A stretch of DNA of 56,156 nucleotides, filler included, from Sphacelaria rigidula (taxonomy: Eukaryota), in assembly GCA_964200075.2 (NCBI GenBank). It is 4 parts of 4 records of this genome, joined end to end, with 100 filler letters (N's around TTAATTAATTAA, not from the genome) between each part and the next. Parts side by side here need not be neighbours in the genome. Positions count along the whole stretch, not along the records: positions 42,196 to 56,156 come from CAXNAA020002547.1; 3 more parts are not named here. One strand, 5' to 3'. Positions 28,032 through 56,156 of the stretch are shown piece after piece. Every line of letters begins with the position of its first letter. The stretch's first letter is position 1. Below the pieces are notes generated by a model. The model saw only the letters and a program-made list of their open reading frames with translations. It did no database searches and was not told the origin of the DNA. The translations under genes and the position numbers were made by a program.

Positions 28032-28131
28032 NNNNNNNNNNNNNNNNNNNNNNNNNNNNNNNNNNNNNNNNNNNNTTAATTAATTAANNNNNNNNNNNNN
28101 NNNNNNNNNNNNNNNNNNNNNNNNNNNNNNN
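28032..28131. other. Artificial contig spacer (N44-TTAATTAATTAA-N44)
   Basis: Same 100-bp structure as 13968-14067. Confidence 0.97.
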
Positions 28132-31569: not shown

Positions 31570-31790
31570 CGGTGGGGCGGTGCAGCTATATGACGACGAC
31601 AACAGCAGCAACCACATGCAACAAAAGACGATCACCACCACACCACACCACACTACACTACACAACACCACCACATGCAACAAAAGACCACCACCACCAC
31701 ACCACACCACAACGAACTACACCACCACCACCGCCACCACCACTACCACAACATCATCAACATCATCATCATCAACAACAACAACAACAT
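31570..31790. repeat. CAC/CAA/CAT-rich microsatellite and low-complexity tract
   Basis: Read directly from the sequence. Confidence 0.8.
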
Positions 31791-32994
31791 GGGCAAGTAC
31801 AAGACTCACTCACTTGATGAATTTATGACTGAATCCAAAGTTGAGGCCATGCACACGCCGCTGCACAACTGACTACTACACACACTACACACACTGAACC
31901 GGCACCCCGACCGTCGCGGTATATACGTACTACATGTGATCTCGTCCGCCTCCACTTTACTAAATAACCTCGTCGGCATGTGTCCTCAACGGACTGAGGT
32001 ATGTGCCGACAGCAGTAATCAACAAGAGAACACACGACACACGCACAGCACACACATTCCATACACACAACACAACACACACACCGATATATAAGTGCAC
32101 CACCGCCGATCTCGATTGCTCCCTTTCCTAACGAACCCCTGTGGATATATACCCATACATCTTCATCGTCCAACAAGTAGTCGTGTTCAACTTTGTGTGC
32201 GGAATATTCCGTTTATATTTTTTTCTGGCTTGATTTCGCAACCCTTTGCATCAATTTCACTGGAACCCGCCAAGCCCCCGTTTGCACGAACGACGCAAAG
32301 ACACGCACGTGCTACGAAATTCACACCAAATCGGCGCCTCGAGCAGTGAAAATATGATCAAACCCACAACATGACAAACCATCATGATTTGTTGGGCATA
32401 TTACATCACGTCACCATCATGAAAAGCATCACGATGTGCTATCGCACTTCCGAGAGTGCCAAAATTGGCTCATTGTACTGCTCACTGGTTCTAGCGTCGC
32501 TCACGCGGCCGATGGGCTTGACGGATTGCAGTGAAACGTTGGGGGTCCTGCCCGCGAAAGTGTACTGCGTACAGTAAAGACTGTTGCGCGTATTGCAACA
32601 GACAACAGATTTCATACTGTACGCAATACATATCTTTACAAAACAATATATTGTCCAGGGTGTGCATAAAAGGGCGCCGGACCATTGCAGCCATACCGCC
32701 AACACCATGAACGGGGAAGACCGCACACGACAGAGCTTCCTCGGAAGTTTCTAGCACGCACACCTCCCCCACCAGGCAGCAGTAAAAGCACACCGGTGAC
32801 GTGCTCGCTGTCGGCGTTGCGTTCTCAAAGTCGAAGGCCTGACACATAGCACCGACGGGAAGTAGCAGCCGGGGACAAAGAGAGCAAGCCATGAGCATAT
32901 ACAACCCACGCTTTAGTTATTGATCAGGGTTGGTTGAGTGACTGATACATCTGCATCACACGTGTAGGATCGAACCCTCCTGCAGTACCACCAA

Positions 32995-32996
<2 letters not shown>

Positions 32997-33060
<64 letters not shown>
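32997..33060. repeat. (TG)n microsatellite
   Basis: Read directly from the sequence. Confidence 0.97.
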
Positions 33061-33061
<1 letters not shown>

Positions 33062-33224
33062 CACTCCCGTGGAAGGGGAAAAGTGATGAGCGTGAAGCGG
33101 AAGCGCAATGATCAGGAAGCTACAACCAGCGACACACACGCACACAATGAGATTGGCGAGGTTCCTGTACATCTGTTGGAGGGCCATCTCTTCAACTGTT
33201 CATCGTAACTTGATCACCCGCGAT

Positions 33225-35129: not shown

Positions 35130-36299
35130 CTGTCCTTGTCCCGCGCCAGCCTGCCTCCCGAGAGGTTGGAACGGAAAGAGAGCGATACACCCGAGACCGC
35201 AATCAGCGACGGGAGGGGGTTACAGCTAGAAATTGCAGCGCACGCTGGAGGGGGGAAACGCTGGAGAGAGAGAGAGAGGGAGAAAGGCGCAATCAAACGG
35301 GGACTCGGTAAAGGCTGTAGGTTCTTAGGATATACGTACTGTACCGCGAAACACTCGGCACGGAGAAGTCAGAAAGCACATACGTCATCGTGAGTTACCC
35401 AAATTTCCAACATTGTTGTTGTTGGGTGAGGAAGGTGGAAAGAGACCTTCGTTTACGCACTTTGCCGCGCAATCACGTCAAGAGAACGAGGGACCCTTCA
35501 GTTTCTACTTATCGGCGTTCACCACTCGCCATCGTGGATCCAAGCGTGTGCGCCTACCGAAGAGCAATTAGGCACACATGACCTTCGGCTTATCGTGCAA
35601 AACACCAACGATGAGGCCCCGCATGCTGCCAGTATGTCAGGATATGCTCATGGATACACCACGACAAGATCTCTCGGCGTTCAGTGTACCCTCTTGTCCT
35701 CCCACTCTACCCCCACAAACCATGGAGCTCGTGGGCACTGTGGAAGCGCAATCTACACTGTCTTGCGACACGTTGGGATAGGTCGTGTATCGCAAGACAC
35801 GAGCTTCACTTGTACGGATAAAGCATACAAATTACACCTGCACTTATACTCAAACATGATAGCCGTTGCGTACTCTTCGTATAGAGCAGCAAGCAGTGAG
35901 TGTGGCATAGCACACGGGAGAAATAAGGCTTGTACTACATACATGCAAGCTGCACTCCCTGCGATGCTACCGAAGCTCCGTACACTCGGAACACATCTGT
36001 CTGCTTCGTGCTGACAACAAAACGATCGGAGCGCCGTGGCCGGATTTGCGCTGCCAAGGGCAGTACTGAATCATTAGGGAACGAAGAAGAAAAACACTAT
36101 TTTGGATCAGATTCGATCCTATCTGTAGGAAAGTTTTCGTTTTTCATTTCAGCATTTGAAATGATCAATGTTGCTATTGTACGGACAAGGGCTAGGCGGG
36201 CATGTCTGACCGACGATCAGGGAAATTTCGAGATCGAAGCTGATAACTAGCCAACAGTAACCAGGTTGACGACGGAGCGACGAACTTTAATGACATGGG

Positions 36300-37350
36300 C
36301 GGTAGGGGGGGAACACCGCTGGTGGGAACAGACACGCCAGAGAAAGATATATGACGACATACAGTAGTTTACAGCTGAAACAGGGGATTTCTGTAATTTT
36401 TTCGTAGTCGACGATTTTCGACAGTGTTTTCGCGTGCCTCCGCCCATTCCAGTGACTGTTTGATCCCAAACTTTGGGGATTGAAAGATACTAGGTGTCTC
36501 TGCTCCACATTCCGAACCAAAATCATCTCTGCACTCAATATTAAACGGCCTACGGTTTGACCGGTTTTCCGGGGGTCCTGTGACTACCCGCCCCAGGTTT
36601 TGACCCTTGGGTATTATTGCTCGATTGGAGCACTTCACTTCCGGTCGTTCTCGTTAACACATGAATAGGAATGGGTTTTCGACTTTCTACATAACCATTA
36701 CGCTAGTGCTGAAATAAAAGGTGTTTTTTGGTCTGGTGATGGTGATGTATATATACAAATCGTGTCATAGCACACCCGTGATAAACGAGGTACGTACTCC
36801 GTATCACCGTGACAACACCCATTGAGGATTTTGCCATGGGCACGACCTTTTTCTTTTTCCAATATCTATCGACGGTAGGGCTTTTGAGTGCTAAACAAGA
36901 ATGGTATACGAGAAAAAAATCAGAAAAACACCCAACTGCAAAAATTGCTCAACCGAGCTTCGCACAGCACATCGAGGGTAAGCTAAAATCCAGATCATTC
37001 TCGGGAATGATTTCGCGAACCCTTATTTTGTAGTTTCACGTATTCATCGCAGTCGAGCATAAAAGAGATGTGCTCGGATCAGGAACGTTCACCAACACCC
37101 CCTGTCAACTCAGCCCGTATGTCGTTCAATATTCAGCGCAGAGACGATTTTGTTTCGGAATGTGGAGCGGGTTCCTATTAGTGGTATCTCCCGATCCCCA
37201 AACTTCGAGACCAAACGTTCACTTGGATGAGCGGTGGCACGCGAGAAACTATTGAAAATCGTCGAATACGAAAAGAGTACAGAATATCCTATTTCAGCTG
37301 CAAACTACTATACAAGACACTACCTAGCCGAATGGACGTTCTACCCCCAT
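36300..37350. mobile_element. Old long-TIR DNA-transposon relic
   Basis: About 36360-36541 is a diverged reverse complement of about 37128-37310 (e.g. gctccacattccgaac / ttcggaatgtggagc and tagtttacagctgaaa / tttcagctgcaaacta). Outer limits are approximate. Confidence 0.7.
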
Positions 37351-39165
37351 TTGACGCCGAATGAGCGGCACTGTACGCGCTGGTTCTGTTTTGACTTCTT
37401 CCCGTGTTCCCCCCGCCTTTGTTGGGATTGTCATGCTTCTTTTGGTCTTGATCCATTTTGCTTAGTTTCTAATAGTTTTCGTGATACAGCTGATTCCTCT
37501 CCTCTCTGCTGGTCTATTCTTTTTTCTAGCCTCACCTGCTTTGGTTGCCTCTGCATCTGTCGATCATGTACGTGTACCAGTAGATAGCCATGTATGTCAT
37601 TACTTTCTCCTGGTATCTCCTGGTTGCTTTACTGCAGTACAGTATGTCATTGCTCGGGTTCCGAACAACAGCACTATCCGACTTTTCGCATTGATGTGAT
37701 GGGTCTTGCAGCGCGAGGAAAGTATCGCCTGCATGCAGTTCGCCTCTGCAATGAAATACCCGTTCCTACTAGGGAGGGGTGATATTTTCAGGTGTGTTTG
37801 TCCGGGAATCTTGTCTTTTTCGACCGCAGGTCTGAGATGAGAGGCTGATGCGACGGTTAGCAAAAAATAACAGAGCCCATCCGTTACTTGTTGTTTGTTG
37901 TTGTCGTTGCTTCCTTCTTTCCTTTCTGTGACTGTTGCTGCTGTCTTCTTCTGCATCTTTCCTTTTTCTCATGCTGCTCTTTTCTGCTGCTCCTGACCAC
38001 GGGCTGGATTGTTGCAATCAGCTAATGTGAGATAATCAGTGGATCATTAACTCCATCGCCCGTTGCCTCCTCCACACACTCTCACAACCGCACGCAAATA
38101 TAACGAACCAGACGCCATGGTCTCTGATAAAGACCAAGCTAGTACTAGTCGCGGCGGCGTGCATTGCTATCCTAGCTCGTTAAGGCCATGGTGACGAACT
38201 GGCTCGATTCACTTTCTTGGTGGAATTTGTGATGATACGCTATTTTTCACATTTCCTTGCAACGGTTTACGAGATACGGTCGACGTATATTGCCACAAGC
38301 GTGTGTGCATTCGAAATACGTGGACAAAAAGGTGTCTGGACGTCACTGGTGCTTCCCGCCTCTGAACTTGAGATACTTTGACATTCACGGGGAACACAAA
38401 AATTCTTGTAAAACAGCCGATTTTCCCGAAATGTCGGAATCGAATGCAAAAAAAAAAAAAAACGTAAAACTGAAGTTATTATTTTTTTCAAATGCGCAAA
38501 TGAAAATCGCTCGAAAAAATCTGTGTTCGTTGTATACGAGTATACCCCAGTGATGAGCTCCGAGTTCCGGACTCCCACCACACAAATGCCAACTGATCGT
38601 GGAAATCATATTTTGATTATGAAAAACATGAAAGCTCAAACGGGGTCGGGGGCCAAGGGCTCAAAAACAAAGCGATATGAGATGTACGCATATGTGAAAA
38701 TGGTATATATATATATTATATATATGTGTGTGTTTTCACGAGAACTCGAGCACTCTCACGCAAATCCTAGAGCCCCGTATGTCGAAATCGTGGATAGACA
38801 GCACGCATTAATTCGTTGTACACCAGACATTCGGCTGTTTAGACGTTCTTCACTCAATGGTTCACTGCGATGTATTATTCACGACATGCAATCTGAACGT
38901 TCACTCTCAATTGCACACGTACAACACCAAAGTCGTGACTGTTGACCTCTTCTTGATCTTCACCTCCCCAATCGCAATATGTTGCCATCCGAGATAATAA
39001 CAAATTGTTTTGAAAATATGTCTTGCTGGATTATCCTGATCCCCGGGAAAAGAGAAAAAATGCCCACATGCCAAGTGGTATTTTTTTTTATATGCGCGTG
39101 ATCACGTAACTGTATATTTTTCTCTCTCCACACGTTTTAGTAACCATGAGGCCGTGTCTTCTTAA

Positions 39166-40675
39166 CCCTTTTGGAACTCACAATGGAAAATTGATCATTT
39201 GCGATTGACGGTTTCTGAGCAAGATATGGTTGATGGTTCATAGCTTAGACGAAACAATTTTGGCCAAACGCGTATTTTTCAGACCCGTACGAGTAACAAG
39301 TGGAGCAAGAGAAGGTTTCCTATTTTCTTGCTGCGATCCGCCGGCCTTTTTTTCTACACTCATGAGGTCCTTGCTCGGCCACAGTGCGCGGCAGGCCTCT
39401 GTGAAGCATGCTTCTGGCCTGACCTGCACGCCCTGCCCGCTGCAGTTTATACTCTTTACAGTGTCACAGCAACAAGGGCAACGCGGATGGCACATTCGGT
39501 AAATGTATGAACTGGCGGTATGCAATCCCAGGCAGTCGTGCCGCCGGGGGTGCTGCGACACTGCCCTGTACAGTACTGGGTGTGTTTACAGCAGTTTGGG
39601 GTTATCTTGACTGCAGACTCACGTCATGCACACCATCGCGCTCATGCACGTTCCGACAGCACCATCCCGCCCTTTGAAAAATGGGTAAAGGCGACGCAGA
39701 CGCCATGTGCCCTGCAGTTATGCACCGTCACTGTGGTGTAGAGTCTGCCAAATGCCGTCGCCCCAGGGGTGATACCTTACTGCTTCGTGTCATGTCTGTA
39801 TTGTATTTTGAGAATATCTCTGTAAAACGCGGGGCATGCACAGAACTGCGCACTGCCAAGTACGTGCCGACAACATCATATTTTGGGCTGACTATTACAC
39901 AACGGCGTAGCGAAAGGCATAGTGGCTCCACCACATCTATACCGCGGGTTGATCGTTCCCGACCGTTGCATAAACATACTCCATGCTGCATGAGATTCAT
40001 GACGCCGGCTACCGCTATCGTCTCGTGCCGTCTACTCTCGTGGCCGACTTTTCACGACATGCCCATATTTATCTTGCACGGAGTGTAGCCGCAAGTTAAT
40101 ATTGTAATCTACTGTATTTACTGACTGTAGTGTTCTTCATCTGGCCTGATTACGGTAGGCGGTGTCCGTCGGCTACCTCCGGTGTACATGTATATCGCCT
40201 GTTCGGACGCCTGCGATTACACCCGCCATGTACCGCCCGCACAACCCACTGTGCCTTCCACATGTGGTGACGGGATTTCGCTGGGTTCAGCCATACTGTG
40301 CTGTATGTACGGTGTGGCTTGGCAAACTCGCCACCCGATGCTGCAGCCCGTCAAAGCGGTGCTTCCCTCATTTACAAATTCTAATATACAAACGTGCCCG
40401 GTTGGACCCTGGAACCCATTGCTATTTTTTGAATGGAATGTCTCATGGTGGTTTTGCTGATTGTTGTCGATGGATGCGATTGGACACGCTTTATCCGGTG
40501 CGTTGTGTGATTGGACAAACCTCACTCGATCTCTGCGGGGAGGACATTCTTCTCCGATCTTCCATTGTAAAAATAGTTGCCGTCGGCCTTTTCTGTTTTC
40601 ATCTTTTCCGCTTCGTTAGGGCTTCTCATAATAAGGCGTTTGACCAGGGGACAGGAGGGGAGGGTTCTAACAGGG
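39166..40675. mobile_element. Non-autonomous piggyBac-like element (1510 bp)
   Basis: TTAA|CCCTTTTGGAAC...GTTCTAACAGGG|TTAA: 10 of 12 terminal bases are inverted matches, with CCC/GGG ends and a TTAA TSD. Confidence 0.65.
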
Positions 40676-42095
40676 TTAAATGGCCCAAAGTTACGTTTTT
40701 TCCACTTTGTTCACATGTGTCACGTGTGTGACGTATCCCTCCCTGGAAATTTCGATCTGGTGAAAATGACGTGGAAGTGAATGACGACCAGTCAGATCGG
40801 AGTTTTACTTTTCCACCACACCTTACCTTGACAAAATATGCTCAATAGTTGCAATAGACAAGAAACGTACTGCATAAAGTATAGGTCTATTGCGACTATT
40901 ATCGGCCAGCAATAGTTACCATAGGCCAATACTTCATGGAGTATACTTCTCGTCTCTTGCATCTATTGACCATATTTTGTCCAGGATGCGAAAAAATGCT
41001 CTGGAGAAGAAAAGCAAATCGATTTGATAGGTGATCATTTCAAAATACACGATGTACATGAGTTTCGACCTATCCTGACCTATCAGATCGGAATTATCAT
41101 CTTCCGTCTCACTTTTTCGATCCATCGGAAAATAATATGCGGCCGAAGACAAGGCGTGAGACTTCACAAAACAACGCAAAATACGGCGCAGCATCCTCTT
41201 CCAGGTACTGTTGTGAATATGGGTGATCTATGATACAGCCAGTAGACAGATGTCGGTGTGTGCTGGCGGAATGTATAAGTAGACCTATACCCTGAAGAAG
41301 GTCAGTGGGCAAACCAATCACGAGAAATCGCTAGTTCTTCGTGCCGTGTTGACCCTCTTGGAACTCGCGAAAAACGGTACAAACTACGATATGCGAGCTT
41401 TCGTCGCCCGGAAAACGTCGCTTTGAGCTCAGTGCACGAATGTGTCACATGAGTCCACTTGAACTCAGAGTGGTGCACCGTTTGGGTGGGCTGCATCACC
41501 AACACTTGCAGAAAAACAGTCATATCTTGGCCAAGAAAACGTTAACCTAGGTGCAGTGATCTGTCCTGATCTAGGCAGTCGACTGGCGTAAAAACCTCGA
41601 TGAGATATCTCAACACACACACAGCAAAATAACCGAGTGGGGTCGAGCTTTACAGCTACCGTCTGTACTATTCATCTGCGCTGCGCTGCGTACCATGCTG
41701 AATATATACGAAGTTTCCCCGCTATTCTGTACAGACTGTACTAGAGGCGTCCGAATGCATCACACGGGAGAAACATGCAGAACTCGTTACTTGCCGTCAC
41801 GTGGAACTTTCCCTTGGTGAAAGTATTCTGCCGGCATCCAGAGCGACACCACTATTATAGGCAAACCATACAAGACAAATATTGCATCACGTGCTCGTTT
41901 GCGGTGTGCTGAGCTATCGCCTTGTCTGGTGCTACTCCATGGTGTTCTGGATCTTGCGGGCGATTTGATGCCGATCGCACGAGATGGTCGTATCAGGTGC
42001 TGGGCGATGTGTCTCTTTCAACATTGGTCGATCGAGAACAGCATGGCCACGCCCCCACTCCCCCCCCCCCCCCCCCTACCGTTTTTTTCTTGTTC

Positions 42096-42195
42096 NNNNN
42101 NNNNNNNNNNNNNNNNNNNNNNNNNNNNNNNNNNNNNNNTTAATTAATTAANNNNNNNNNNNNNNNNNNNNNNNNNNNNNNNNNNNNNNNNNNNN
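42096..42195. other. Artificial contig spacer (N44-TTAATTAATTAA-N44)
   Basis: Same 100-bp structure as 13968-14067. Confidence 0.97.
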
Positions 42196-42421
42196 GGACA
42201 GAGGTGACCATAACCAAAGCGATCACCATTAAAAAAAAAAAAACGATATATGCCGGACGTGGGAGAGAAGCATAGTCATATGTCGGTTGAATCGACTACA
42301 CATCCTCAATGGAAAAATACACAAGCAGAAAGACTAGATGACTACTGCGAGATGTTGCAAGAACGAAACACCAGCAACGCAAGGACCCCCCCGTAAAAAC
42401 GCGGCAGTATAGCGACGACCG

Positions 42422-42779
42422 GTCGCCACAGTGGCCCAGTTGGTAGCCTCGAATCCTTCTGACGGTTGGGTCGTGGGTCAAAATGTCGGACCGATCTACG
42501 ACTTTTTCTCACACAGTGCCCAACAGTGGAGAGCGCCTATGTCGTGGGCACACAAAATTTGGCTTGACGGTCAACGAGGGAAAGGGACTGCTGAATCCCT
42601 CTCGCGATGAAAAAGATTAAGGCAAGCACCGCAGAAGAAAGGTGGAGAGCTAAAACAAATAATAAAAATAACAACTGTGTTTGCCTTCCTCCTGTGTGAT
42701 TCCGGCTGATGCGCCCACATATACCGACAGGTGTAGACCGGCGTCCAGAAAAGATGGGATGACAACACAGTACAACACA
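42422..42779 (+). mobile_element. tRNA-derived SINE, copy 1
   Basis: Head with A-box-like TGGCCCAGTTGG and a degenerate B-box. The body aligns with the copies at 50580 and 54190. CA-rich tail. Confidence 0.8.
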
Positions 42780-43234
42780 TGTCGTTCACCCTCAACTCTT
42801 CGTACAAACACCAAATTACATGCCACCGATGGTTTGGGGGAAGACGAAAAGAAAAGAAAAAAACGGGGACATGGCATGATCACTGCATGTTTTTTTGTCG
42901 ACGTTTTTTTTTTTTCATATGCGCACAACCCGCCACCAATCAATTGGGCGAGAACCCCAACGAGAGCACACCGAGAAATGATAAATAGATGCATCAATAG
43001 AACAGATACGCCGACTGGAGTGGCTGGAGCCGCGCCCAAACGACAACTATAACGAGTGCTGACGCGAAGAAAATAGCGCGGCTACGTTACAACGACAAGA
43101 CACCGACTGCACTGCACTACTTCAACGCAGCCATGTCCACATCACCCGCAGTGCTTTTTTGGTGGTGAAGAAAGAAACACGTGTTGGGCTTGAGCACTGC
43201 ACCTCTGCTGAAAAAAAATGACAGATGCGACCTG

Positions 43235-44373
43235 GGCCGGCCCAGACGCGGATTTAAGCTCTCAAAGCAGTATTTTATCGACACAGATGAATTTGTCCAT
43301 GATCCGCATGGTCTTTTTATCAAAAGTCTGGGTCAATGGTTCTCGTAGATTGAACCTCTAGTAATTCCTATACCGTACGAAGATAGTGTCCATACTAAAA
43401 GTTTATTTGAAACCCCGAACGATATTTACACCGGATGACGACAATTTTTGGTGCGGACATTCCCTGGAGCACGGGGAAACGATCGATACTCTCATCTTTG
43501 CCTAATTCGTGATCTATCTCGACATATGGTGCACATAAGGTTCTTTACTAGAATCAATATATTACGAGCAGAGGCACTAAATGCACCAAATGCATAAAAT
43601 CGGAATATCGCATCTCAGTTTCTGAGAGTTGTGCTCTGAAATTTGGTATGGAGAATCGTTGGTGCATGGTGAAAAAAACAGATTTTGTTTTCTTCACTTC
43701 TTCTCTTTTTTTTTCTTTTTTCAAGGGGAGTTTTAAGGAAAATAGACAATGCTCTCGGACCTCATCTCAGCTCTTCAGCTCAATTTCTAGAAGTGTGATT
43801 TGAAATTTATCATGGAGAATCAATCGCAATGGCATGCCGAAGTGAAAAAAAATGGGCCTCCATATAAAGAGGTACGGACGTTCTCGTGAGGAGACGGTTT
43901 TTACTGAATGGTCCCAACACGCGTAAAATAAAACCAAAATCAACAATTCCCACTGTTCTTGGTTCATTCTGGCCTAGCGAGTTCCCACAAAAGAATTCAA
44001 AACACGAGTACCAAACCTGTGCCGGTAAATGGCCTGGAAAATATTGTTCCAAATTTCGCCCGGCCTAGTTTCTAAATCGCCCCGCCTCACCTCAACTTCG
44101 AGAGTTGAACTTTCTAACTTTGTACGGAGGAAGAATGAGGGATGCAGGGGAATATTGTTTCGGGACAATAACTTTTTTTCCTTCTCGTGAGTTAATGACG
44201 TGATTACTGTAATCAATTTACGACCAAATATATATATATATATATATATATTGTCCCAAAATAACATTTTCAAGTGTACCCTATTCTTCCTCCGTACCGA
44301 AGTTTAAAGTCCAACTCTGAAAATTGAGGTAAGGCGGGGTTTCCAAAACCACAAATTTGCGTCTAGGCCGGCC
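43235..44373. mobile_element. Possible PIF/Harbinger-like non-autonomous element with a nested fold-back (about 44080-44339)
   Basis: TIR GGCCGGCCCAGACGC / GCGTCTAGGCCGGCC with 3-bp flanks CTG and CGG. Inner inverted arms ccccgcctcacctcaa...ttgaggtaaggcgggg and tacggaggaagaat / attcttcctccgta. Confidence 0.55.
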
Positions 44374-44574
44374 CGGCTCGTACGTTCTCCGGCATGGCAC
44401 CAACTAGCTCCATCACGGTACTAATAAACAATTGATATTATTTTTTCCGCACATGAGCCCGATCTCTCGAACCCACGATCACAGCCATCGACTCGCCTTT
44501 CCACTACCATCGCTACTAACCCCTACATACATCCGCTGAAAAAAAGAAGCATGCGTTGGGATTGGGCATCTCAC

Positions 44575-47500
44575 CTCTGTGAACGTAGCTCGGTCGATGC
44601 CAACACACTCCACCGGTCCGTCAGCGGTCGCCGTCGAGCACATGGGCAAGCTCGCCACCAAAGCCTCCTCGCCAAACATCTCTCCGTTTTCCTGCCGTAC
44701 CAACCGAACAATGTCATCATCCACAGAGCACAGAACTTCTGTCAATCTCAAACAAATGTACACCAACAGCGTGACGGCAAAACGAAAAAAAAAACAGCGC
44801 ATCAGACTCCTTGCCAGTGTCGCTCACACGCCCCGTAGCGCTCACCATGCTCGATGTCTCCCAACAGTACAACGGCGGCAGGCGTCAACCCCATATGGGA
44901 ATTCGTAGCCGTCTAATACAACATGCATCATTGCGATCTTGTCGGGGGAGCGGGGGCAGGAGGTGTTGCGGAAAAAAATTCAAGCGCGGACTTCGTAAAG
45001 CTATGGCAGTTCTCCATAAGAGGAAGCAGTAGCGGCACACTTTTTCGTTTTTGGGTGCGGAGATTAGGCTGTTGGGGGAAGATGAGAGCTCGGCCACTTC
45101 TCATGGCAAACAAAATTGAAAATCTGGAAAATTGTCTTCGTGGAGCTTCTGCGCCGTTCCATGCCCCAAAAGAGAGCTAGGCGGTTTTTGATACTGTACC
45201 TTCGAATGTCTGGCTGTGCTCGTTGAGACGCCTGCGGCACACTTGTGCATTTTGCCGGTGGCCGCAGTTTTTCGTTATCCAAACTTCCATTTTTCTCGAG
45301 ACCGCTCGTTTTTCTCGGAGTCCGGTCAAATGAAAAAAAAATCCGAAATTTGTCTGAATTTGCCCTGTCTCCCAGAAGAAGCGATCTCCAAAAAAAAAGC
45401 TAGGTTGGCCAGGGGGCTACAAGAAAAAAAAATCGGGACACTTAGGCCCCAAGATCGAAAACTTGAGTTTTTAAGGGGGGGGGGGGGGACGCACCCAGCC
45501 TGCTGTTCCCTAGTTTATTGCCGAGGCGTTGGTGGATGCGGTCAGCTACCGTGTACACAGATCCTTGGCATGGAGACCGCTGAGATGGCAGACACTCCTC
45601 CCTCCCCAAGCTCATCACTTACCATGATTACATTTATTATCATGTTCCGTGTTGTGTGCCTCGAGTACCCACCAGTAGTCCGGGCAAGTTTGGCAGGGCG
45701 TGAGATGTTGTTGCTACTTTGGCTACAGGCTGTCGCTACCGTGCGCTCGGGCAAATACATGTCTGTGAGCGTGGCCGGCATCTGAGGCCATCGGGACAGA
45801 GCGGGCGAGAAGCAGATGCAAATATACGAACTTCGCAAAGCCCACCAGACTTTTCCGTTTTTGTCAGTGTTTTTTTCATCAACTTCTTGCAACAACATTC
45901 AACAACGACAACAACGACAACAACAACAACAACAACGACAACGACAACAACGACAACGACAACGACAAAAACAACAATAATTATGACAATTTTCGAAAGT
46001 ATGCCCTTCAGGAGGGCGGGGGGCTCCGTGTCCAAACATCTTTTCCCCATAGCGCCCTGGGTTGGCCAAGAAAACAAGCTGGGCCCACCGGAAATGCACA
46101 GGTGTACTGGAACCCTCAAGGAGTACAGCAAGGCATTTCAAGGTGTCGATATCTGCCTAGCTCTCTTTTCGGGCGTAAATCGACGTAAAAGCTCCAAAAA
46201 AGGCATTTTTCTACACTTGATTTTTGTTTGCCATAAGCACCGGCCTTAGCCCATATCATCATGTTTGTATACGACAAAAATGGCGCATTAGCAACGTGGC
46301 GTGAAAGCGCAGGAGAGGCACAACAAGTCATGGTGTGCGATCGATGTGACATGGCCCTTCCTCGTGCACCCTATGCTACACCTCACCACGGCATACCACT
46401 CCTACTACAAAAACAGCAAAAGGAAAAGGTCTGCAAAACTCACCCCCCTCCACCCCCCCCCGCCTCACCCAACGCAACGCAACGGATGGCAGAAATGGCG
46501 ATGAAGCACAAAAAGAATTGAATAAACTAACCTTGGTCTCTATGGGGCCGTCGGGACCTTCCAGCCTTACAACCCCCCTGTTGACGAAGTAGCAGCAGTG
46601 GTGGAAGTCGCCCCTCTGGTAGATAACCTCTCCATCCGCGAACTTCTGCTCTCACAACACAAAGGACAGCGCACGGTAGCGCGCAATGAGCCGAGTCAAC
46701 ACACGCCCACGCGCGAGAACATAGCAGATGGAGAGCCAAGTTAGAACATGATCACTTGGGATCTCCTTCCTCCGGGAGGAGGGGGGGGGGGGTTCATGAA
46801 ACCAAAACTGACATCTTGATCGTGAACAGCCCGACGTCCAACGGTCGACGAGCAGTTCACATCACGATTGAGGGGAAAATGAAGCCCCTTCCACGAATAC
46901 ACCAGCCACGTTCGCGATCGTCAAGGGTCAGGGGGGGAGTGGCACCAGGCGAATCGTGTTTATATTCGTAACGTGGCCAAACATGATTATAAACTCCTTC
47001 TTACAACCGCAGCACCGACATGCTATAGCACATGTCTCCACCTTGCTTGTTCAAACAAGAACGTGACAAGCCAAAGAAGTCACGATCACATCACAAACGA
47101 ACCACGAGATGCACACGGTTCTCCATGCCGCACAATACTACTGCTAAAACTGCTCAAGAGGTGTCGAAGGTGGGTCAGGGGATAATGGACTATAATGACA
47201 ACCCCGCGCAAGCAAACAAAACAACCATCAAGAACACGCACGTGTCCCACGTAAGTCAAGATACCACATATCCACATGCTTCCACCGGTGCACAATACCT
47301 GGTGGTTGAGAGGGTGGCTATCCGAAGACTTGAGCTTCTGGTACATAGATCGTTCGAATGTCCTCAGGCTGCGATCCCCTCTCGTCTTCTCCTGCAAAGC
47401 TCGCAACAAGTCCACCTGAACAACAGCGAATCGCGCCAGTTTCCAAGTAGACAAGTATGTTGGAGTGAGCGCAAACTCGACAGACACATGAAGAAATAAA

Positions 47501-50500
47501 AAAAAAAGTGCAAAGCGTCAAGTAGACGTACAATGCATACCCGCCTTCTCTGACAAAATTTGGTCGCAATACGTCCGACTGCACACACACCCTTACGGCT
47601 CCATCATTCACGCATCCCGCATACTGCAACAAATCCTTCGATATCGATATCACGCGTGGATTCTACGACAAGCGGATTCGATTTTGTTCAACGCTAAAGC
47701 TCCGACCCACCAAGTGGTTCACTTTTTCTCCTTTTCCACCGTTTCTTGTGCTTCTTCTTTGGAGCGGGGGAAATGAGCTTCGAATGTTGGTGCGCTCTAC
47801 TACGATCACGTGGACATTTCACGGGAAATAAGAGCACGCTTCATGTATTCTTGGCCGGGCCAGCGAATTCAAACGCAAAGTGGATTCCCTTGAGAGTAAC
47901 CACCTTCGTTTGTTCTTACAACAACAACATAAAAAGGGGCAGAGATTTTCCGCAGGATTCATCAACTCTTGACCGTCAACAGCTTCGCATCTCCTTTGTT
48001 GCGTTGCTATTTTATTTTTCCGATCGTAGAGTGATGTTGCGATTGCCCCCCCCCCCCCACTTGCGGCGTAATTAGATGGGTTTCCGTATGAGGCGTTATA
48101 GTGGGAAGGACGCAAATTTAAAAGTACTGGCAGTAATGACTGCCCCTTTTCCATTACCAGTACACAGTAACAATACCAGTAGTTTAGCGGTGTTTTTTTT
48201 TTCACGTCCCCAGGAGACAGGAAGGAGCCTTTCAACATGCACTTCGCTATTTCTAGTTTCGTGCAGTGCATTCGAGTGCACTGCACCCGTCGTACGTCCC
48301 CAGCCCTTAGGCTAGCTAGTCCGGTCGGATGTAGGGGTAGGCACCAAGGTGGGAGTGCCCCCCCGTCACCCAGGTAGTCTCGGACTTATCCCTTTTCCTC
48401 AACTAGGTAGGGTCGCCCTCACCGAGCGAACTTCCTACAATGTTCCCCAGCTCGACCCTGTACACGCGTCACCCTACCCATCCGGGCATAGGTCCTCATA
48501 GTCTACCGGTGTGTACTAGTCCAGTACTCAGCCCTCGTTATGGCCTTGTATACACTATGCAATATGACACGAAGTGGAAAATGACACGAACACAAGAGTA
48601 TGACACACACACACCCACACACACACACAAGGAGGGTGATGAACCGGGTTCTTTACCTTGGCGTAGCTCTGGCAAGCTGTCAGCTCTTCCTCGGTGGGGA
48701 TCACTGACTTGGTGGCAGACCCTAGCACCCTCCGGGCTTCTCTACCGGTGTTCACCTGAGTCGCCCGGGTGACATTAAGCTTTGCCGCGCGCTGGAAACA
48801 CCGAAAAAAACAGCACAAAGAGAGTGCACGCCACGCCACGCCATACCACGGGACAAGTGTTTGTGACAGGCCAATGAAAAACAACGCGTATGAGATGTTG
48901 CTCCGCAAACACGATGAGGTACGAATCAAACCTCATGCCGTGCCGTGGATACTGCCGCCACCGACGGGGTTGGGCGCGCATTCCTGTGAATGGAAATATA
49001 CTACAGCATACTCCCAAAAGTTCCTTCGGCGATCGCACATACGCGAGCGCAAAAACAAAACAAAAAACAATATGAGTCGATCGGCTGCAGCAGTGCTGGT
49101 CCAACGCTCTGGGAAATGAACAGAATGCGATGCAGGTACGGGGAAAAATTGGCCAATCCCTCGAAACAACGGATTCGTCCCAAGGAAGAAGAGGACAAAG
49201 TCTAGAAGCGCCACATAAAAAAAAAAGTGTCCTCATGCCTCGCAGCCTTTGCATATTCCGGACGCCACACAGGCATGCTGCTGGGAATGTAATCGCGGAC
49301 ACGCGAATCTCTTCTTCGAGTCAGTCGGCGTATTTACATGCATGCACGTTACAGTAGCGTGTACCTGAGTGAGATTCCGCCCCCATAGGCGCAGAACCCT
49401 CTGCTTTTGGTTATGCTCGTACAGAGAGTCCTGCAACAGCTGGTCTGCCTTCCTTTGATCTTCCAAGTTTTGTCTGCTTTTCTCATTGAGGGCCTCCCTG
49501 TGTGGTCCATGCACACAGCGCCAAGCCGAAACAAGAGCAAAACGGGGAAAAGATACATGTATAAGGAGAAAGAAAAAAGATGCAGAAGAGCCATGAATCC
49601 ATCCCTCTGTTCACCCATCATGTGCCCACGAGCCACAAAAAACAAATACCCAACAATGATGAAAAGGGATGGGAAAACAAAGTAGCAAAATAGTCGATCT
49701 AATCCGCACACGAGATAATTATTCTTGTATTAAGCGCCAATACTACTAAATATTTTTCTTCTGCTTCGATCACGTCCGCGCCGAATCGACACAAAATGAA
49801 GCGGTGTCGGAGGGGGGAGGGTGGACGGGGGGGGGGACACACAATCACGTACCTCCTCTGACACGACGGTGCAAAAACAAAACCAAAAAAAGTAGAAAAA
49901 ATAACACAAGATAGAATCTATACAAGATAAAAGTAAACCAAACAAAGGACTACACGCGATCATGAGCAACGCACAGCGACCCTTTTCAGGAACACGCTGT
50001 TGAAGACACAACCTCGCGGTCGACGTTTTCACCATCGTCGCAAAAGCCCATCAATGATCATCACCTAATTCCATTCATACTTCGGAAATATATTTCCCCC
50101 TGCAACCCGGTCCGCAGAAAACCCGGCGTGCCCCATCCCGGCTTTGTAGGAATGCGAGTTCAATGGTCTCACGACTACGGCATGCAAGATGATGAGTACA
50201 CCCCCCCGCCCTCCAGCCGTAGATTATTCCCCCTCACCCGTAGAGCTGAATCATGATGGCCGTCAGCAGGTTGAACACGATCAGTACGCCCACCACGTGA
50301 TAGAGCGCGAAGTAGAGAAACGCGGAGTGGCCCACCTCGTTCACCGTATCCTCCACCACAGCACTGAAGTCTACGCCGACGAACAGTTGCAGCGTCGTCT
50401 TGAGGGCGGTGCCTGCGTCCTTGAAGGCGGACGCCTACACATTAAATAAAAAAATAAACAAAAGCAGGAGGTTGGAATAAGATTTCTGAAAAACAGGAGC

Positions 50501-53500
50501 AAACGAAATCAAACCGAGCGAACGAGCGCAAAAAAGCAAAGCAAAGCAAGGCAATAATAAAAGCAAATAGTGCGTGAGCTGTGCTGTGCTGTGTGTGTGT
50601 TGCCATCCCATGTACTCTGGACGGGAGTCTACACCGTTCGGTAAATGTGGAGGCATTAGCCGGGATCACACAGGAGGAAGGTCAACACAAGAGTTTTATA
50701 TTTCAGTTTATCGTTAGCACTCCACCTTCCTTCTAATCGCGAGAGGGGTTCAGCGGTCCCTTTCCCTCGTCGACCGCAAAGTCGAATTTTGTGTACCCAC
50801 GACATAGTCGCTCTCCACTGTTGGGCATGATGTCAGAAGAAATCCCAGATCGTGTGATTTCATCGAGATCCGAACCCACGTCCTAACCGTCACAAGGTCC
50901 CGAGGTTACCAACTGAGCCACCGGGGAAACCCCAGAGTGTATACGCATCTCTTCCAATGACGAGTGTGTAACCAGTCGACCGTTGACTTTGAAATGCAAG
51001 CATGAACCATCACGCACGAATTCGTGCTTCAACAAATGTTGACGTTCAAAGGCGCCATTTTTTTGCTACAATACATCTCTTTTCCATAAAAAAATCTCGC
51101 AAGCCCTTTCTTATCAGACCATCTTCCAAAAATTTCGACTCAAGTGCTTGTGCCTTATCGGGATTACAACCACTTGGGCGCCAGGACGACATGAAACACA
51201 CACACACACACACACACACACATGGAAATGATGGAGGTAACTTTTCGGATAAGATTCAAGACGCACAGTCCCGTCTCTCTTCTCTCGGATAAATACTTGG
51301 ATTTAACCTCTCCTGCCTCCGATCTCCACCTGACCGGGGATGGTTGTGTCGGGGTAGGCTAGTCCAACCAGCAACCAAACAACACACCCGACGCGTAGGA
51401 GGAAGCGACATGACTCACGGACTATTGTGGTCTGTGTTCTGTGTCGGTGGTGATGCAGCACACAGCCTCAGGCAGTGATGACCTCTAGGCTCTATTCTGC
51501 AGCTGCGGAGTTGTACCCTGTACTGGGATCCGAATTCAACCCCGCAGCTGCAGCGCTTGACCCCAAGTTGGAGCACTGTCACGAAAACCTTGGTGGAGAT
51601 GATGAGACACGTGTGTGTGAATACCAGATTCGGCGGATTGTAGCTAACGGCCGACATGGATTGGGAAGGCTGCACCCTCCCCTCCCTGCGAGACCAAAAC
51701 TAAAGACAAGTACGATACCATCCATGACCGATTTGCCTTCCATGCGCGATAATCAATCAAGTGAAATGAAATAATCAAATAATCAAATAGTCAAATCAAA
51801 TTAAATCAAATCAAATCAAATCAAATCAAACCAAACCAAACCAAACCAAACCAAACCAAAGATTGTTGGTTTTCCACCTTCATGTTTCCAACGGTCGTGT
51901 GTAGCCACCGATACTCGTCGATCCACGCAACATACTGTGTCCAACATCGAAAGTCGGAGTCATGAGTAATTTTGTAGTCTCCTTCTTTCCCCAGTTCTCT
52001 CCCTACTCATGTGCTCTTTCCTCCCGGTGTATGCCAGTATTATAGCACTTTGGTACCTCGCCTTCGTAAGGTTCATTGATGATAACTCCATACCCAAAAT
52101 ACTGAGGTCGAGATGCATGCAGTCCCCACGGCTCTTTGTTCCCCACGATTGAGGATGAGTGTGGCTTTTGCGCAAGTCCATTTCCACCGAACACATGTGG
52201 GAGAGGACGGCCATTTCTAGTTTGTTTTTGTCACTGTTCTTGTTATGATCTTCCTCTTGTTATTTTCTTTTCTCAGTGTACTCTGTCTGCTCCACTGAGT
52301 ATTCCCATCATGTTGTCATCTCGGGTAGGTCTATCATGTGGATAATGACCAATCACGGTTGGACTACTGGGGGATCAGTTAAATTGTGACAATCAATCAA
52401 TCACAAGTGACTGTTCGAGCGATAGTATGGGGGAGGGGGTGTTATACAGTTGGGGCCAATTTTGATGAGAAATGAGACGAAAACGCCTTCAATGCTCCCG
52501 CCTCCTGCGGCCTGCTCGCTGCGCCGGCCGATATTTCTGAGATATGTGCCAAAAAAAATCCGGTATAGTCATGCGACGATAGGGGTTGCACATTTGAGCC
52601 CAAATATTTGTCGTTCGGGGGCTCCCAAAGCTAGCAGCAACACGAGAACATGGTTTAGGACGTTCCCGTTCTCAATTTCATTCGGGATATTCCCAGCCAA
52701 TTGATTGGAATGCTAAAGCTAATGCTAATCGTGGCGTGCTGTCACGTATTTCACAAGCCGCTTTCTTGGATGAGAAAAGGGCTCTTGACAATTCGAACAT
52801 CAGTAAATAGTTGTGCACCCTTGCCGTAGCAGCGCGGAAAAATATCAGCACACATCTGCTTTACCGATCCCCCACGTACAGTATATTGGTTATTGCTGTC
52901 GACACAGAACCCTAATGTTCATACTTCATTCATAAGTACTCGCGACGCACACTGGTAGTCAATGCGGCCTCTTCACACTGTCATGATAGCGCCCGCCCAC
53001 AGGCGCGGGCAACGTTTACTTCCGTTGACCACAATACGAAGAGGCAGCGTGGGACACTTTTTACGATAGCCCCCCCCCCCCCCCCCCCCCCCCCCCAAAG
53101 CAACCGCGCACAAGCCCAAAAAAAAAAAAAAAAAAATGAANNNNNNNNNNGAGAGAGCAACATGTCCCCTTGCCGCCGTCACAAAAGATCAAGAAGGAAC
53201 GGTAACGTTGCTTAAGAGCCCAACCCCCCCCCCCCCCCCCCCGAAAATCAGCCCGAAAGTGTCACGAAAAAAATGGACATACAGTGCCTGATGTTTGGGT
53301 CCAGGCTACATGAAGCGCCTCATATGGGCGACATTGGTGAGAACGAACCCAAGCGTGGGAATTCCCAGCTGCTCGTTGTGCTCGGCATTTTCCATTTAGA
53401 TTTACGTGAAGATTTCGTCTCCCCAAACCAGGCACTTTTATGGTGGGGGGGGGGGGGCGTACTCATTTGTTGCTTGCCTTAGTCGTTTGACCATTGACCA

Positions 53501-54109
53501 CGCATCCCTTTCGAGACGGAGCAAGGGGGGCGATCGTGGAAAGTGCCGTGGATCTGAAATTACTCAAAAATTGTTTTGTAAGAACCCTTGGTGGCATGAT
53601 TTCGGTGTTCGAGGGGGGGTTGGTAAATTTTGCCGAATAGGATCACCATCTAGACACAGGATCAATAACAAGGGATGCATGCCGGTTCATCTTCATCACG
53701 CCCCAAACTAACTGACTTCGTACGCTCAAACAAAGCGTAAGACCGTGCCTTAATCTTGCTACACCTGCAAAACACAAAACATAGTCACACACCACCTCGT
53801 TTTTTTTCTTCTTTCTTTTTTCATTATACACCGCATCACGACAGACAGAAGGCAACTATGCTAGGGAAAAAATAAAAACATGAGTTGTACCCGAGGCCTC
53901 CCTCCCTCACCTTGTCAGCGAAAAACTGCATGCCCCCCAGAGCAAAGGCATACGCCACGATGAGCGCAAAGCTGAGCGTCTGAGCGAACACGGGCACCAC
54001 AGAGAAGAACGTGTCTACGTGCGCGTGCAGCGTGTCGTTGAGGGTCACCAATCGCCAACAGCGCATGAGCCGCATCGTATATGCCAAGGCCACCATCCCG
54101 TCCATGCAC
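44575..54109 (-). CDS. Voltage-gated cation channel, two-pore-channel-like S4-S5-pore-S6 module plus C-terminal cyclic-nucleotide-binding domain; 5' partial
   Basis: 7 phase-consistent exons: 54109-53911 (S4 TMRLMRCWRLV; S5 ...AYAFALGGMQFF), 50434-50238 (pore FKDAGTALKTTLQLFVGVDFSAVV; S6 VLIVFNLLTAIMI), 49497-49365, 48791-48657, 47415-47299 (linker), 46645-46532 and 44691-44575 (CNBD FADGEVIYQRGD...YFVNRGVV...GEMFGEEALV...VECVGIDRATF). A possible terminal exon at 43207-43142 is weakly supported. Confidence 0.85.
45890..45980. repeat. (CAA/CGA)n microsatellite
   Basis: Read directly from the sequence. Confidence 0.9.
50580..50926 (-). mobile_element. tRNA-derived SINE, copy 2
   Basis: Minus strand reads CCCCGGTGGCTCAGTTGGT...GGGTTCGGATCTC, followed by the same body (gagggaaaggg, ccctctcgcg, ccttcctcctgt). 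Confidence 0.8.
51770..51860. repeat. Compound pentanucleotide microsatellite (AAATC)n(AAACC)n
   Basis: Read directly from the sequence; probably a retroposon tail. Confidence 0.9.
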
Positions 54110-54189
54110 CTGTGCCCGGGGTGGGGGTAGGGGGGAAATTACGTAACTGTGTAGGGGGAAGTTACGTAATTGTGAACTTCACAACGTGT

Positions 54190-54547
54190 GTGTATGTTGT
54201 GTTGTCGTCTCATCTATTCTGGACGCCGGTCTACACCTTTCGGTATATGTGGGCGCATCAGCCGGGGTTATACAGGAGGAAGGTCAACACAGGAGTTTTT
54301 TTTCTCTTTAGTTCGTTTGTAGTACTCCACCGTCCTTCTGCGGTGCTTGTCTTTATTTTTTACCGCGAGAGGGGTTCAGCATTCCCTTTCCCTCGTCGAC
54401 CGTTGAGTCGATTTTGTGTACCCACGATATAGTCGCTCTCCACTGTCGCGCATTGTGTGAGAAAAAATCCCAGGTCGCTCCGAGATTTGAACCCATGACC
54501 CAACCGTCAAAAGGTTTCGAAGTCACCAACTGAGCCACCGGGGCGAC
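54190..54547 (-). mobile_element. tRNA-derived SINE, copy 3
   Basis: Minus strand reads GTCGCCCCGGTGGCTCAGTTGG (A box)...GGTTCAAATC (B box), followed by the same body of about 280 bp. Confidence 0.85.
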
Positions 54548-55734
54548 GTGTACACACGTCATACCGGTACCGGTACCTAGCCACCTCCTTCGCGAAGAGA
54601 AAGTTACGTGAATCCCCTCAGAATGTGAGGCTTGTCTCTTATGCGTACCTAGACTGCTATCCTACAACGAAGGGAGGTTATGTACGCACAGATACATCCG
54701 TCATACTTCTTGAACTCACCCCCCGTTTCTCCTCGGGACGAGCCTGTAATTTCAAGGGATTACCCGACCTCTGCCACGGTACCCGCCTGACAATCCGTTA
54801 CCAACGGTTGGGTTATGAACCCACGATACACCCCGTCGACTCTCGACGAGTCTTTCTTCCGCCGCCGATGTCACCACATTTTTCAAAAGACGACAAGCAA
54901 CAGGTCTTCAAACGATCAACTGTGATGGACAACTCGTACCTCGACCGGAAAAAGACAACACTTGAAACGGGGTGGACGGGGCGGACGGGGTGTACTCATG
55001 ATCTTACATGCCATAGTCGTTTGACCATTGACCTCGCATGCCTACAACGCCGGGACGGAGCACGCCAGGTTTTCGCCAGACCAGGCTCGCAATCAATCAC
55101 CAAGCGCGAAGCGCCGTGGNNNNNNNNNNGTGTTCGGCGAGTCGCATGAAGGGTTAACTGCATCCTGCCAAGATTGTTCGGCCTGAAGCGTACTGATTGC
55201 CTTGCATTTGGATGACAGCCTCCAATGAGCTGCTTTATTTTCTGGCATTGCCACTTCCAGAGACAGCCATGGTTTCCACACTACCTCATGGGTGTTTCGC
55301 CATCATTGGGAGAGGTAGAGTGGGGTAGTGTATGTAAGCTATGGGTTTCATAGCGTAAGACATACTTGAACCATGGATTCATGGATTCCCCTGCCCACGA
55401 GTCCTCGCTTCGTACCCTGGGGGCTGTTTGACTCTCTTCGACCTACCCATGATACTACCCGTTAGAGCATGTGCTTGGACGGGAAGACGGTATCGAGCAA
55501 ATCGCTCAACACCATGGGAAAATACAGGGGATCGTACTCTGCACATATCGTGTGGACGCATTCGCATTTGGTTGATGTACACAACATTGCACAGTACGAC
55601 GATAGCCAAACGACATCTCAATCATTGGAAAAATAGGGCCGTCCTCCCAACGCCAGCCCGTCCTAAAGAAAGAAAACCAAACACACCCCCAAAAACATTG
55701 AAAAACCCCCCCCCCCCCCCCCCCCATCAAGTAC

Positions 55735-56080
55735 AGGAAGGCGGCACGAAACCATTTGGTAAACTGGATAGTAGCGAAAACCCGATCGCTTTACTGCGAT
55801 TTAGATGGTGGACACAGGCGGCGAACGAGGAAGGGGATGACAAAAGTAAAAAGTTTTCGTGCAATGTCTGGAAGAACCAGAATAAGCGCCCAAATGTTCG
55901 AGGTGTCTTGATTAGGAGTAACTATGGTGCTCGGTCTCGGAGGGATGAGTGGTCCGTGATCATATGACTCAAGACCAGCAGCAAATAAGTTCCTCCCCCG
56001 GCCCCCGCCCTCTGCTTCGTCGAAAGGGATGCGCGGAATATGGTCAAACGACTAAGGCGTACTTCTTCCCCCCCCCCCCC
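55735..56080 (+). mobile_element. LINE-like 3'-terminal fragments followed by C-rich tails
   Basis: Coding-like stretch KPFGKLDSSENPIALLRFRWW...NVWKNQNKRPNV, then two copies of the terminal motif (ggatgcg..atggtcaaacgactaagg). The same motif occurs at about 50152, 53477 and 55013. Confidence 0.55.
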
Positions 56081-56156
56081 CGACCCACCCCCCCCCGCCC
56101 CCGCCGCCCCCACCCACGCACCACTCCCCCCCGCCGCGCGTCAGGCGCGACGCGGC

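Follow-up and report, generated by a model that had tools for sequence, protein, structure and literature searches.

Can a two-pore channel (TPC) carry a cyclic-nucleotide-binding (CNB) domain, and if so, is the domain still a nucleotide sensor? The question is raised by a gene in a stretch of DNA from the brown alga Sphacelaria rigidula (assembly GCA_964200075.2). The whole stretch, 56,156 nucleotides (nt) long and joined from parts of four genome records, is referred to here as the window; the gene lies in its last part, positions 42196-56156, which comes from CAXNAA020002547.1. We consider it probable that this part of the window holds the 3′ portion of an expressed gene, with seven coding exons on the minus strand. 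The evidence favors a channel that belongs to a small ochrophyte family of TPC relatives ending in a CNB-fold domain, a tail that is non-canonical. Spliced contigs that join pore and tail exons, relatives with two channel repeats, a profile match colinear with plant TPC1, and the loss of a key arginine from the tail carry this reading.

RESULTS

Seven exons encode a pore module and a CNB-fold domain

We defined the exons from stop-to-stop reading frames and from the DNA at their boundaries. The seven exons have outer limits of 54109 and 44575 (Table 1), and each is flanked by an AG acceptor and a GT donor. When they are joined, the frame of 1012 nt, or 337 codons, is free of stops and open over all six junctions. 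The observation of seven in-frame exons made in the initial annotation is confirmed, with the same coordinates, GT-AG boundaries throughout, and 337 open codons. The motifs read at that time from the translation, an S4 of the form R-x-x-R-x-x-R, S5, a pore stretch, S6, a linker of about 130 residues, and a CNB domain (CNBD), are all present; the linker, encoded by exons 3 to 5, measures 128 residues between S6 and the CNBD.

Table 1. Coding exons of the Sphacelaria rigidula channel gene, in order of translation
Exon	Position	Strand	Encoded feature
1	53911..54109	-	S4 of repeat II (R-x-x-R-x-x-R), S4-S5 linker, S5
2	50238..50434	-	Pore helix, filter stretch (invariant Asp right before Phe), S6 with Asn-Leu pair
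3	49365..49497	-	Charged helical extension directly continuing S6
4	48657..48791	-	Linker
5	47299..47415	-	End of linker, helix into CNBD
6	46532..46645	-	First half of CNBD beta-roll
7	44575..44691	-	Phosphate-binding cassette (F-G-E kept, Arg to Met), last beta strands, start of helix B

Both domain families were recovered when the single exon frames were searched against Pfam, the check that had been suggested with the first description. Ion_trans was matched by exon 1 (E 8.5e-08, 32.1 bits, profile 95-156) and by exon 2 (E 7.9e-08, 32.2 bits, profile 170-233), both above the Pfam cut-off of 25 bits. The two halves of the CNBD matched adjacent parts of cNMP_binding, exon 6 at E 3.4e-05 (24.2 bits, profile 2-37) and exon 7 at E 8.8e-06 (26.1 bits, profile 40-85); each half alone falls slightly below the cut-off of 27.5 bits, and the entire domain of the orthologues reaches 50.9-52.4 bits. 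The exons between pore and CNBD have counterparts in two other brown algae. By tblastn, exon 4 matched P0003, a partial Ectocarpus sp. protein of 401 amino acids (aa), and P0004, a partial Ascophyllum nodosum protein of 1104 aa, at E 1e-11. Exon 5 matched P0004 at E 3e-11, and exon 6 gave a match at E 2e-12.

Pore and CNBD exons are joined in one transcript

We examined contigs from four sequencing runs, X1 to X4, aligned over 42200-56156. Each run comprises about 80 million contig letters and holds 12-16% of the words of the window, and its library is guessed to be RNA. One long contig was obtained per run (4275, 4392, 3182, and 4503 nt) at a depth of 94-125; intron pieces from the same runs have a depth of 2-5. 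Exons 1, 2, 3, and 4 are covered in all four runs, with contiguous record coordinates and no mismatches, and exon 7 is covered as well in X3 and X4 (two of the four runs, among the matches listed). The contigs cover 53910-54110 at exon 1, 49365-49496 at exon 3, 48655-48791 at exon 4, and, in X3 and X4, 44575-44690 at exon 7; they pass directly from 53910 to 50433 and from 50237 to 49496. Pieces of exons 5 and 6 are absent from the contig matches listed, and their cover is deduced from the 230 contig letters that separate exon 4 from exon 7. This length fits the two exons together (117 + 114 = 231 nt), allowing for junction-ambiguous bases (two bases at one place and one at another). A further 3.3 kb or so of the contigs, past exon 7, found no place in the window.

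With the library type guessed, we read these contigs as spliced messenger. Since exons 1 to 4 and exon 7 are joined in them, the pore exons and the CNBD exons are in one transcript. The first description had also considered that the CNBD exons might sit in a separate gene; the contigs from X3 and X4, which connect exons 1 to 4 with exon 7, point the other way.

The gene belongs to a small family with two channel repeats

To define the relatives of this gene, we used the peptide of exon 1 as a query against 1.84 billion representative proteins, and only 11 were found at E <= 0.001. Five of these are short and come from reading through the same exon in other genomes; the remaining six are long (683-1421 aa). 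All six long relatives contain two Ion_trans stretches; five also contain cNMP_binding, and the sixth ends within repeat II. In Ascophyllum P0004, Ion_trans is found in two stretches (E 5.4e-36) together with cNMP_binding (E 5.4e-14). A search with the exon 2 peptide gave four longer proteins, two of which, from Ectocarpus sp. and Ascophyllum nodosum, have both Ion_trans and cNMP_binding. Two of the long relatives are complete open reading frames of MMETSP transcripts, and one cluster includes the raphidophyte Chattonella subsalsa. A count of six-transmembrane (6-TM) repeats, as proposed in the initial annotation, therefore has two outcomes: the relatives have two repeats and one C-terminal CNBD, and the window itself shows only S4-S6 of repeat II. 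The fusion of a CNBD to a TPC-type channel, the central claim made at that stage, stands, with the two parts in one transcript and the same architecture in relatives.

The window protein is identical to Ectocarpus P0003 at 242 of 337 positions and to Ascophyllum P0004 at 241 of 337 (72%), and to the remaining family members at 95-121 of 327-336. Exon 1 shares 51 of 66 residues with both Ectocarpus and Ascophyllum, the pore exons share 51-53 of 66, and exon 3 shares 36 of 44 with Ectocarpus. Among the brown algae, identity is 22-27 of 38 for exon 6, 27-28 of 39 for exon 7, and 20-36 of 39-45 for the linker exons 3 to 5; the CNBD is thus conserved about as well as the linker and less well than the pore exons.

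Other searches returned few additional members. A word-index search with the family alignment gave eight matches, six of them family members; the other two were an unrelated channel of 1875 aa and a bacterial major facilitator superfamily (MFS) protein with a CNBD. Both matches to repeat I of the family member P0012 were again members. A metagenome scan produced 589 pattern matches and a single true relative (L001), and in the ESM Atlas the best score was 0.81, with all scores below 0.9, so that these serve as leads only. The family appears to be small, conserved, and, as far as the names attached to its sequences go, confined to ochrophytes. The bacterial protein among the word-index matches, P0022, is an MFS transporter from Marmoricola sp. 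with cNMP_binding and a weak match; it is another CNB fold fused to a membrane transporter.

The transmembrane part resembles TPCs

We compared the family with proteins of solved structure. The family profile, A1, matched the sequence of AtTPC1 in the PDB at E 1.4e-32 in one stretch, from profile 97-644 to chain 122-695, a match that takes in repeat I, the linker, and repeat II. Zebrafish TPC3 (8.2e-29) and mouse TPC1 (4.2e-27) followed, and Cav3 and Nav chains reached only 1e-12 to 1e-15, over one repeat only. With P0010, a member without the tail, as the query, all 15 chains found at E <= 1e-5 were TPCs. The two pore exons of the window by themselves gave weak matches (E 0.02-10) to BacNav, Nav, NALCN, TPC, and Cav chains and to one HKT2 chain (E 2.5); no K, CNG, or HCN channel was matched in this PDB search.

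Predicted structures are consistent with this placement. For the AlphaFold model of P0012 (pLDDT 62.7), the 14 best Foldseek matches were TPCs, with TM-scores of 0.21-0.39; the scores are low because the monomer model packs the repeats poorly. The model of the Ectocarpus fragment, the counterpart of the window part, gave VIA Z values of 14.2 for NavRh, 14.2 for CatSper, 14.0 for mouse TPC1, and 13.4 for TPC3; in the range of 11-14, where helical bundles match by arrangement alone, Nav, CatSper, TPC, and many CNB proteins score alike, so that only the class can be read from these values. S6 is one long helix in both models (residues 593-662 of P0012 and 109-182 of P0003) and is predicted to continue for about 45-50 residues past S6. 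Between the repeats, a region that aligns with the EF-hand region of AtTPC1 matched EF-hand_7 in two of the six long relatives, at 21.9 and 19.2 bits; this region lies outside the window.

Taken together, the sequence comparisons support assigning the transmembrane part to the Nav/Cav/TPC branch and not to the K-channel or CNG branch. The pore had been read as TPC- or Cav-type, similar to domain II of TPCs, and the PDB matches to TPC, Nav, and Cav chains and the colinearity of profile A1 with AtTPC1 agree with this. A kinship of the pore with CNG, HCN, or K channels, named at the same time as the contrary outcome, was not seen among the PDB sequence matches.

Both selectivity filters are acidic

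In filter I, an Asp or Glu is aligned with the Asn of AtTPC1 in all eight sequences that have repeat I. In filter II, an invariant Asp is found in all nine sequences of A1; it is present in the window too, and it adjoins an aromatic residue that replaces the usual Trp. The filter stretch of the window contains no motif of the TVGY/FG type. In the accessible part of a paper on diatom Ca2+ channels (PMC11085791), the filter motifs of repeat II are VNN in animals and in diatom TPC1, MGN in plants, and VND in diatom TPCL, and those of repeat I are TSN or TAN. Judged by these motifs (PMC11085791, same part), the Asp of filter II would occupy the site of the TPC Asn and of the diatom TPCL Asp.

The CNB-fold domain lacks the cassette arginine in most members

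We next consider the tail, which scores 50.9-55.3 bits against the whole cNMP_binding domain in P0003, P0004, and P0012. Its best solved relatives are apicomplexan PKG (profile E ~1e-44), PKA regulatory subunits, and Epac. No HCN, CNG, or KCNH chain was among the best 60 PDB sequence matches in either search. The structural match of the Ectocarpus fragment model to PfPKG has a Z of 13.2, again within the range that gives class only, with a root-mean-square deviation of 2.2 over 86 aligned residues and 30% identity. Since the nearest relatives are PKG, PKA, and Epac, and HCN, CNG, and KCNH are missing from the best 60, the CNBD looks like a kinase-type domain, acquired separately from the CNBDs of other channels.

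In PKA, HCN, and CNG, affinity drops by orders of magnitude when the phosphate-binding cassette loses its Arg. We located the column of this Arg by HMMER alignments to PKG. It is occupied by Met in the window, Thr in Ectocarpus, Thr in Ascophyllum, and Arg in P0011, and then by His, His, Tyr, and Ser, so that Arg is kept in only one of the eight sequences; the F-G-E of the cassette is kept in seven of the eight.

These residues bear on whether the tail is a receptor for cAMP or cGMP that opens or modulates the TPC-type pore, which would couple cyclic nucleotides directly to Ca2+/Na+ flux, as the initial annotation had suggested. Such classical gating would suit a full CNB fold with its F-G-E largely intact, whose nearest solved relatives are true receptors for cGMP and cAMP and which keeps the cassette Arg in P0011; a tail that is about as conserved in brown algae as the linker also argues for a maintained function. 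However, the Arg that holds the cyclic phosphate is absent from seven of the eight sequences, including the window and both brown-alga orthologues, and a loss of affinity of the size seen in PKA, HCN, and CNG would be expected to follow. We therefore regard classical gating as unlikely, and the proposed coupling is not supported in the form first given. The CNBD is probably functional and probably not a canonical receptor for cAMP or cGMP. Because the phosphate-clamping Arg is missing in the window protein and in its brown-alga orthologues, the brown-algal CNBD is more likely a CNB-homology regulatory module, ligand free or with some ligand other than canonically bound cAMP or cGMP, than a classical sensor.

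DISCUSSION

Proposed architecture and working of the channel

The exons and the way they are spliced, the domain families, the presence of two repeats in relatives, and the absence of the Arg are directly supported; from these we infer a dimer, its selectivity, its dependence on voltage, and a role for the tail. Going by the orthologues, the full subunit would have two 6-TM repeats joined by a degenerate EF-hand-like linker. After S6 of repeat II, a long helix would lead through the linker of about 130 residues to a single PKG/PKA-type CNB-fold domain. If the subunits pair as they do in TPCs, two of them would surround one pore, and the channel would then hold two CNB domains instead of a ring of four. 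The S4 of repeat II, with its three Arg, may sense voltage. The dimer would present four carboxylates at the mouth of the pore, because each filter motif has an acidic residue where TPCs have Asn; these would favor cations, probably Ca2+. The acidic filters of Cav, CatSper, and engineered BacNav are the basis for suggesting Ca2+ permeability. The CNB-fold domains may bias the gate through the extension of S6, with a ligand that is uncertain.

A more ambitious proposal, which we put forward tentatively and hold to be rather doubtful as a whole, is that these proteins form a distinct ochrophyte class of two-pore channels with a Ca2+-selective pore of four carboxylates, gated by a small ligand through a kinase-type CNB-fold domain hung on S6. 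Members with the Arg would respond to a cyclic nucleotide; the brown-algal channels would use a different metabolite or have no ligand. If this is true, there would be a direct route from a second messenger to TPC Ca2+ release with no counterpart in animals or plants, and the channel might act in the vacuole or in flagellated zoids and gametes.

Alternatives to a two-repeat TPC relative

Several points weigh against a TPC relative with a CNB-fold tail. The window holds S4-S6 of repeat II and the tail; S1-S3 of that repeat, repeat I, and the linker that connects repeats I and II fall outside it, so the count of 6-TM repeats rests on the orthologues. The contigs stop no more than 148 nt upstream of exon 1, and the two-repeat state of this very gene is therefore likewise taken from the orthologues. 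At the other end, motif and Smith-Waterman scans of 30000-44575 did not find the 3′ end of the coding sequence. The runs X1 to X4 are only guessed to be RNA, and an intron-less DNA copy may formally account for their contigs. The assignment to TPCs depends on the match of profile A1, colinear over both repeats. For the EF-hands, the scores stay under the Pfam cut-off of 30 bits, and matches occur in two of six proteins only. Placement of the filter II Asp draws on a weak alignment to NALCN (E 0.52) and on the motifs in the accessible part of PMC11085791. Finally, the AlphaFold models are middling (pLDDT 62.7 and 61.1), with low TM-scores to TPCs (0.21-0.39) and a pLDDT below 50 in the linker.

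Some of these points would also suit a gene that encodes a single-repeat channel of the BacNav or EukCat kind with an acquired CNBD, the upstream half being absent or part of a neighboring gene. The window exons alone match BacNav chains best (E 0.02-0.13, versus 0.6-0.8 for TPC), repeat I is not in the window, and the spliced contigs end close to exon 1 in all four runs (96, 138, and 148 nt upstream in three, with the X1 contig starting within exon 1). Upstream of 54109, tblastn found no match to P0004 or P0010. However, only 2 kb of the window lies upstream of exon 1, and the upstream region is rich in high-copy elements; repeats are where contigs of this kind break. The Ascophyllum orthologue, 72% identical, has both repeats in one gene model, and so do complete transcripts of more distant members. 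A single-repeat channel is therefore very unlikely, and a two-repeat TPC relative remains our preferred reading.

It is extremely improbable that the pore and CNBD exons are an artefact of two adjacent genes, or that the intron-less form is a retrocopy and not messenger: the runs are not on record as RNA, but exons 1 to 7 are contiguous in record coordinates with no mismatches in independent runs, at a depth of about 100 against 2-5 for intron pieces, MMETSP transcripts and the gene models of two other brown algae show the same fusion, and the frame is open over all six junctions.

Surroundings of the gene

The region around the exons contains several repeats. A dispersed element of about 350 nt is present in three copies that are 77-88% alike, two in direct orientation at 50596-50926 and 54198-54547 and one inverted at 42422-42769. 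One end resembles the reverse complement of a tRNA T-arm, and the element is probably a tRNA-derived short interspersed nuclear element. Two of the copies are in or beside introns of the channel gene, and the summed contig depth there is 1e4-1e5. Located 235 nt beyond exon 7, at 44080-44339, a 91-nt inverted repeat (75% complementary) surrounds a (TA)n tract at about 44219-44261 and is similar to a miniature inverted-repeat transposable element. One of its frames reads "GTLEN" and resembles what comes next in the orthologues, probably a coincidence. We considered this match, at 44280 and the only one from the scans for the 3′ end, as the next coding piece and rejected it as unreliable, since it lies within the inverted repeat and runs into the (TA)n tract and a stop. 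Between exons 6 and 7, the intron contains a long trinucleotide tract at 45897-45986, which reads as poly-Thr or poly-Val in two frames and at which reads are cut.

Nine N runs (10 or 44 bases) were recorded, with the coordinates 13968-14067, 20796-20805, 28032-28131, 42096-42195, 53141-53150, and 55120-55129. The runs at 53141-53150, in intron 1, and at 55120-55129, upstream of exon 1, are scaffold gaps, and 42096-42195 is the join just before the CAXNAA020002547.1 part, on the side towards which the unplaced 3′ portion of the transcript may extend.

Elsewhere in the window, an S4-like tblastn match on the plus strand at 5670-5732 (E 0.34) has neighboring frames without Pfam support and was dismissed as chance. 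The minus strand at 6840-9689, in the GC-rich stretch between positions 6 and 10 kb, has long open frames that match a gag zinc knuckle (E 2.8e-07), the zinc-binding domain of an integrase (E 5e-08), and, weakly, an RNase H-like domain; we take it to be the remnant of a long terminal repeat retrotransposon. Two GC-rich open frames of 365 and 273 codons, also on the minus strand (34122-35219 and 28883-29704), have no Pfam match and are possibly exons of other genes or derived from repeats.

Novelty and meaning

The current view is that voltage, Ca2+, lipids, and NAADP (nicotinic acid adenine dinucleotide phosphate)-binding partners regulate TPCs. The accessible part of a 2020 survey (PMC7576140) treats the CNBD as confined to channels with K-type pores; the tandem forms described there consist of two 6TM-CNBD units and come from dinoflagellates and oomycetes, with none found in phaeophytes. 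A conserved and expressed TPC relative with a CNB fold and acidic filters would break both rules, the one on how TPCs are regulated and the one that keeps the CNB fold to K-derived channels.

Full-text literature searches found no paper on a two-pore channel with a cyclic-nucleotide-binding domain; the supplements of PMC11085791 and PMC7576140, which might list brown-alga TPCs, were outside these searches. The diatom Ca2+ channel paper describes TPC1 and TPCL and, in its accessible part, leaves cyclic nucleotides unmentioned (PMC11085791). The architecture is likewise unmentioned in the accessible parts of a review of oomycetes (PMC4820453) and of a review of the vacuole (PMC4844392). The combination of a TPC with a CNB fold thus seems to be undescribed. 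The first description had known of no characterized example and had allowed for an existing annotation; the literature searched holds no description, and the public records hold predicted proteins without a functional name, labeled only "unnamed protein product" or "hypothetical protein."

The family would offer a natural test case for a gate of two-fold symmetry driven by two ligand-type domains, in comparison with gates driven by four. It also provides a candidate for Ca2+ release in brown algae, raphidophytes, and related groups, in which little is known of the Ca2+ signaling machinery. With the cassette Arg lost from most members, the tail would be a second, independent example of CNB homology on a channel, beside KCNH.

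Comparison with known systems

TPCs form one pore from a dimer, reside in endolysosomal or vacuolar membranes, and are gated by voltage, Ca2+, NAADP, or phosphatidylinositol 3,5-bisphosphate. Like plant TPC1 and animal TPC1, TPC2, and TPC3, the relatives of the window protein have two 6-TM repeats per chain, a colinear profile, and an Arg triplet in S4 of repeat II. Unlike them, the family has an acidic residue in place of the filter Asn in both repeats, its EF-hand region is degenerate, and a CNB fold follows S6 of repeat II after about 130 residues; none of the TPC chains matched has such a fold. Diatom TPCL, compared by description only, is similar in being a stramenopile TPC-like class whose filter II ends in Asp (VND) and which is without working EF-hands. 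It differs in that no CNBD is reported for it, and the term "cyclic nucleotide" occurs 0 times in the accessible text (PMC11085791).

The channels known to carry a CNBD (HCN, CNG, KCNH, plant CNGC, Shaker-type channels, and SthK) also place the CNB fold after the last pore-lining helix. In Foldseek, chains of CNG, HCN, and SthK matched one repeat and the tail of the P0012 model (E 1e-9 to 1e-8). These channels have a pore of the K-channel lineage (TVGY/FG, in the accessible part of PMC7576140), a C-linker, and one CNBD per 6-TM unit. The window family, in contrast, appears to combine a pore of the Nav/Cav/TPC type with one CNBD per two repeats, and its linker is modeled at a pLDDT below 50.

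The single modules of BacNav, CatSper, and NaVEh are the best structural matches of the S4-S6 part, with Z values tied within 1, and the exons alone match NavAb-type chains; these channels, however, have subunits of one repeat and no CNBD. In KCNH channels, the CNB-homology domain has the CNB fold without the residues that bind cyclic nucleotides and acts as a built-in regulatory module. It would be the nearest analogy for the tail of the Sphacelaria channel, on a different scaffold and in a different lineage.

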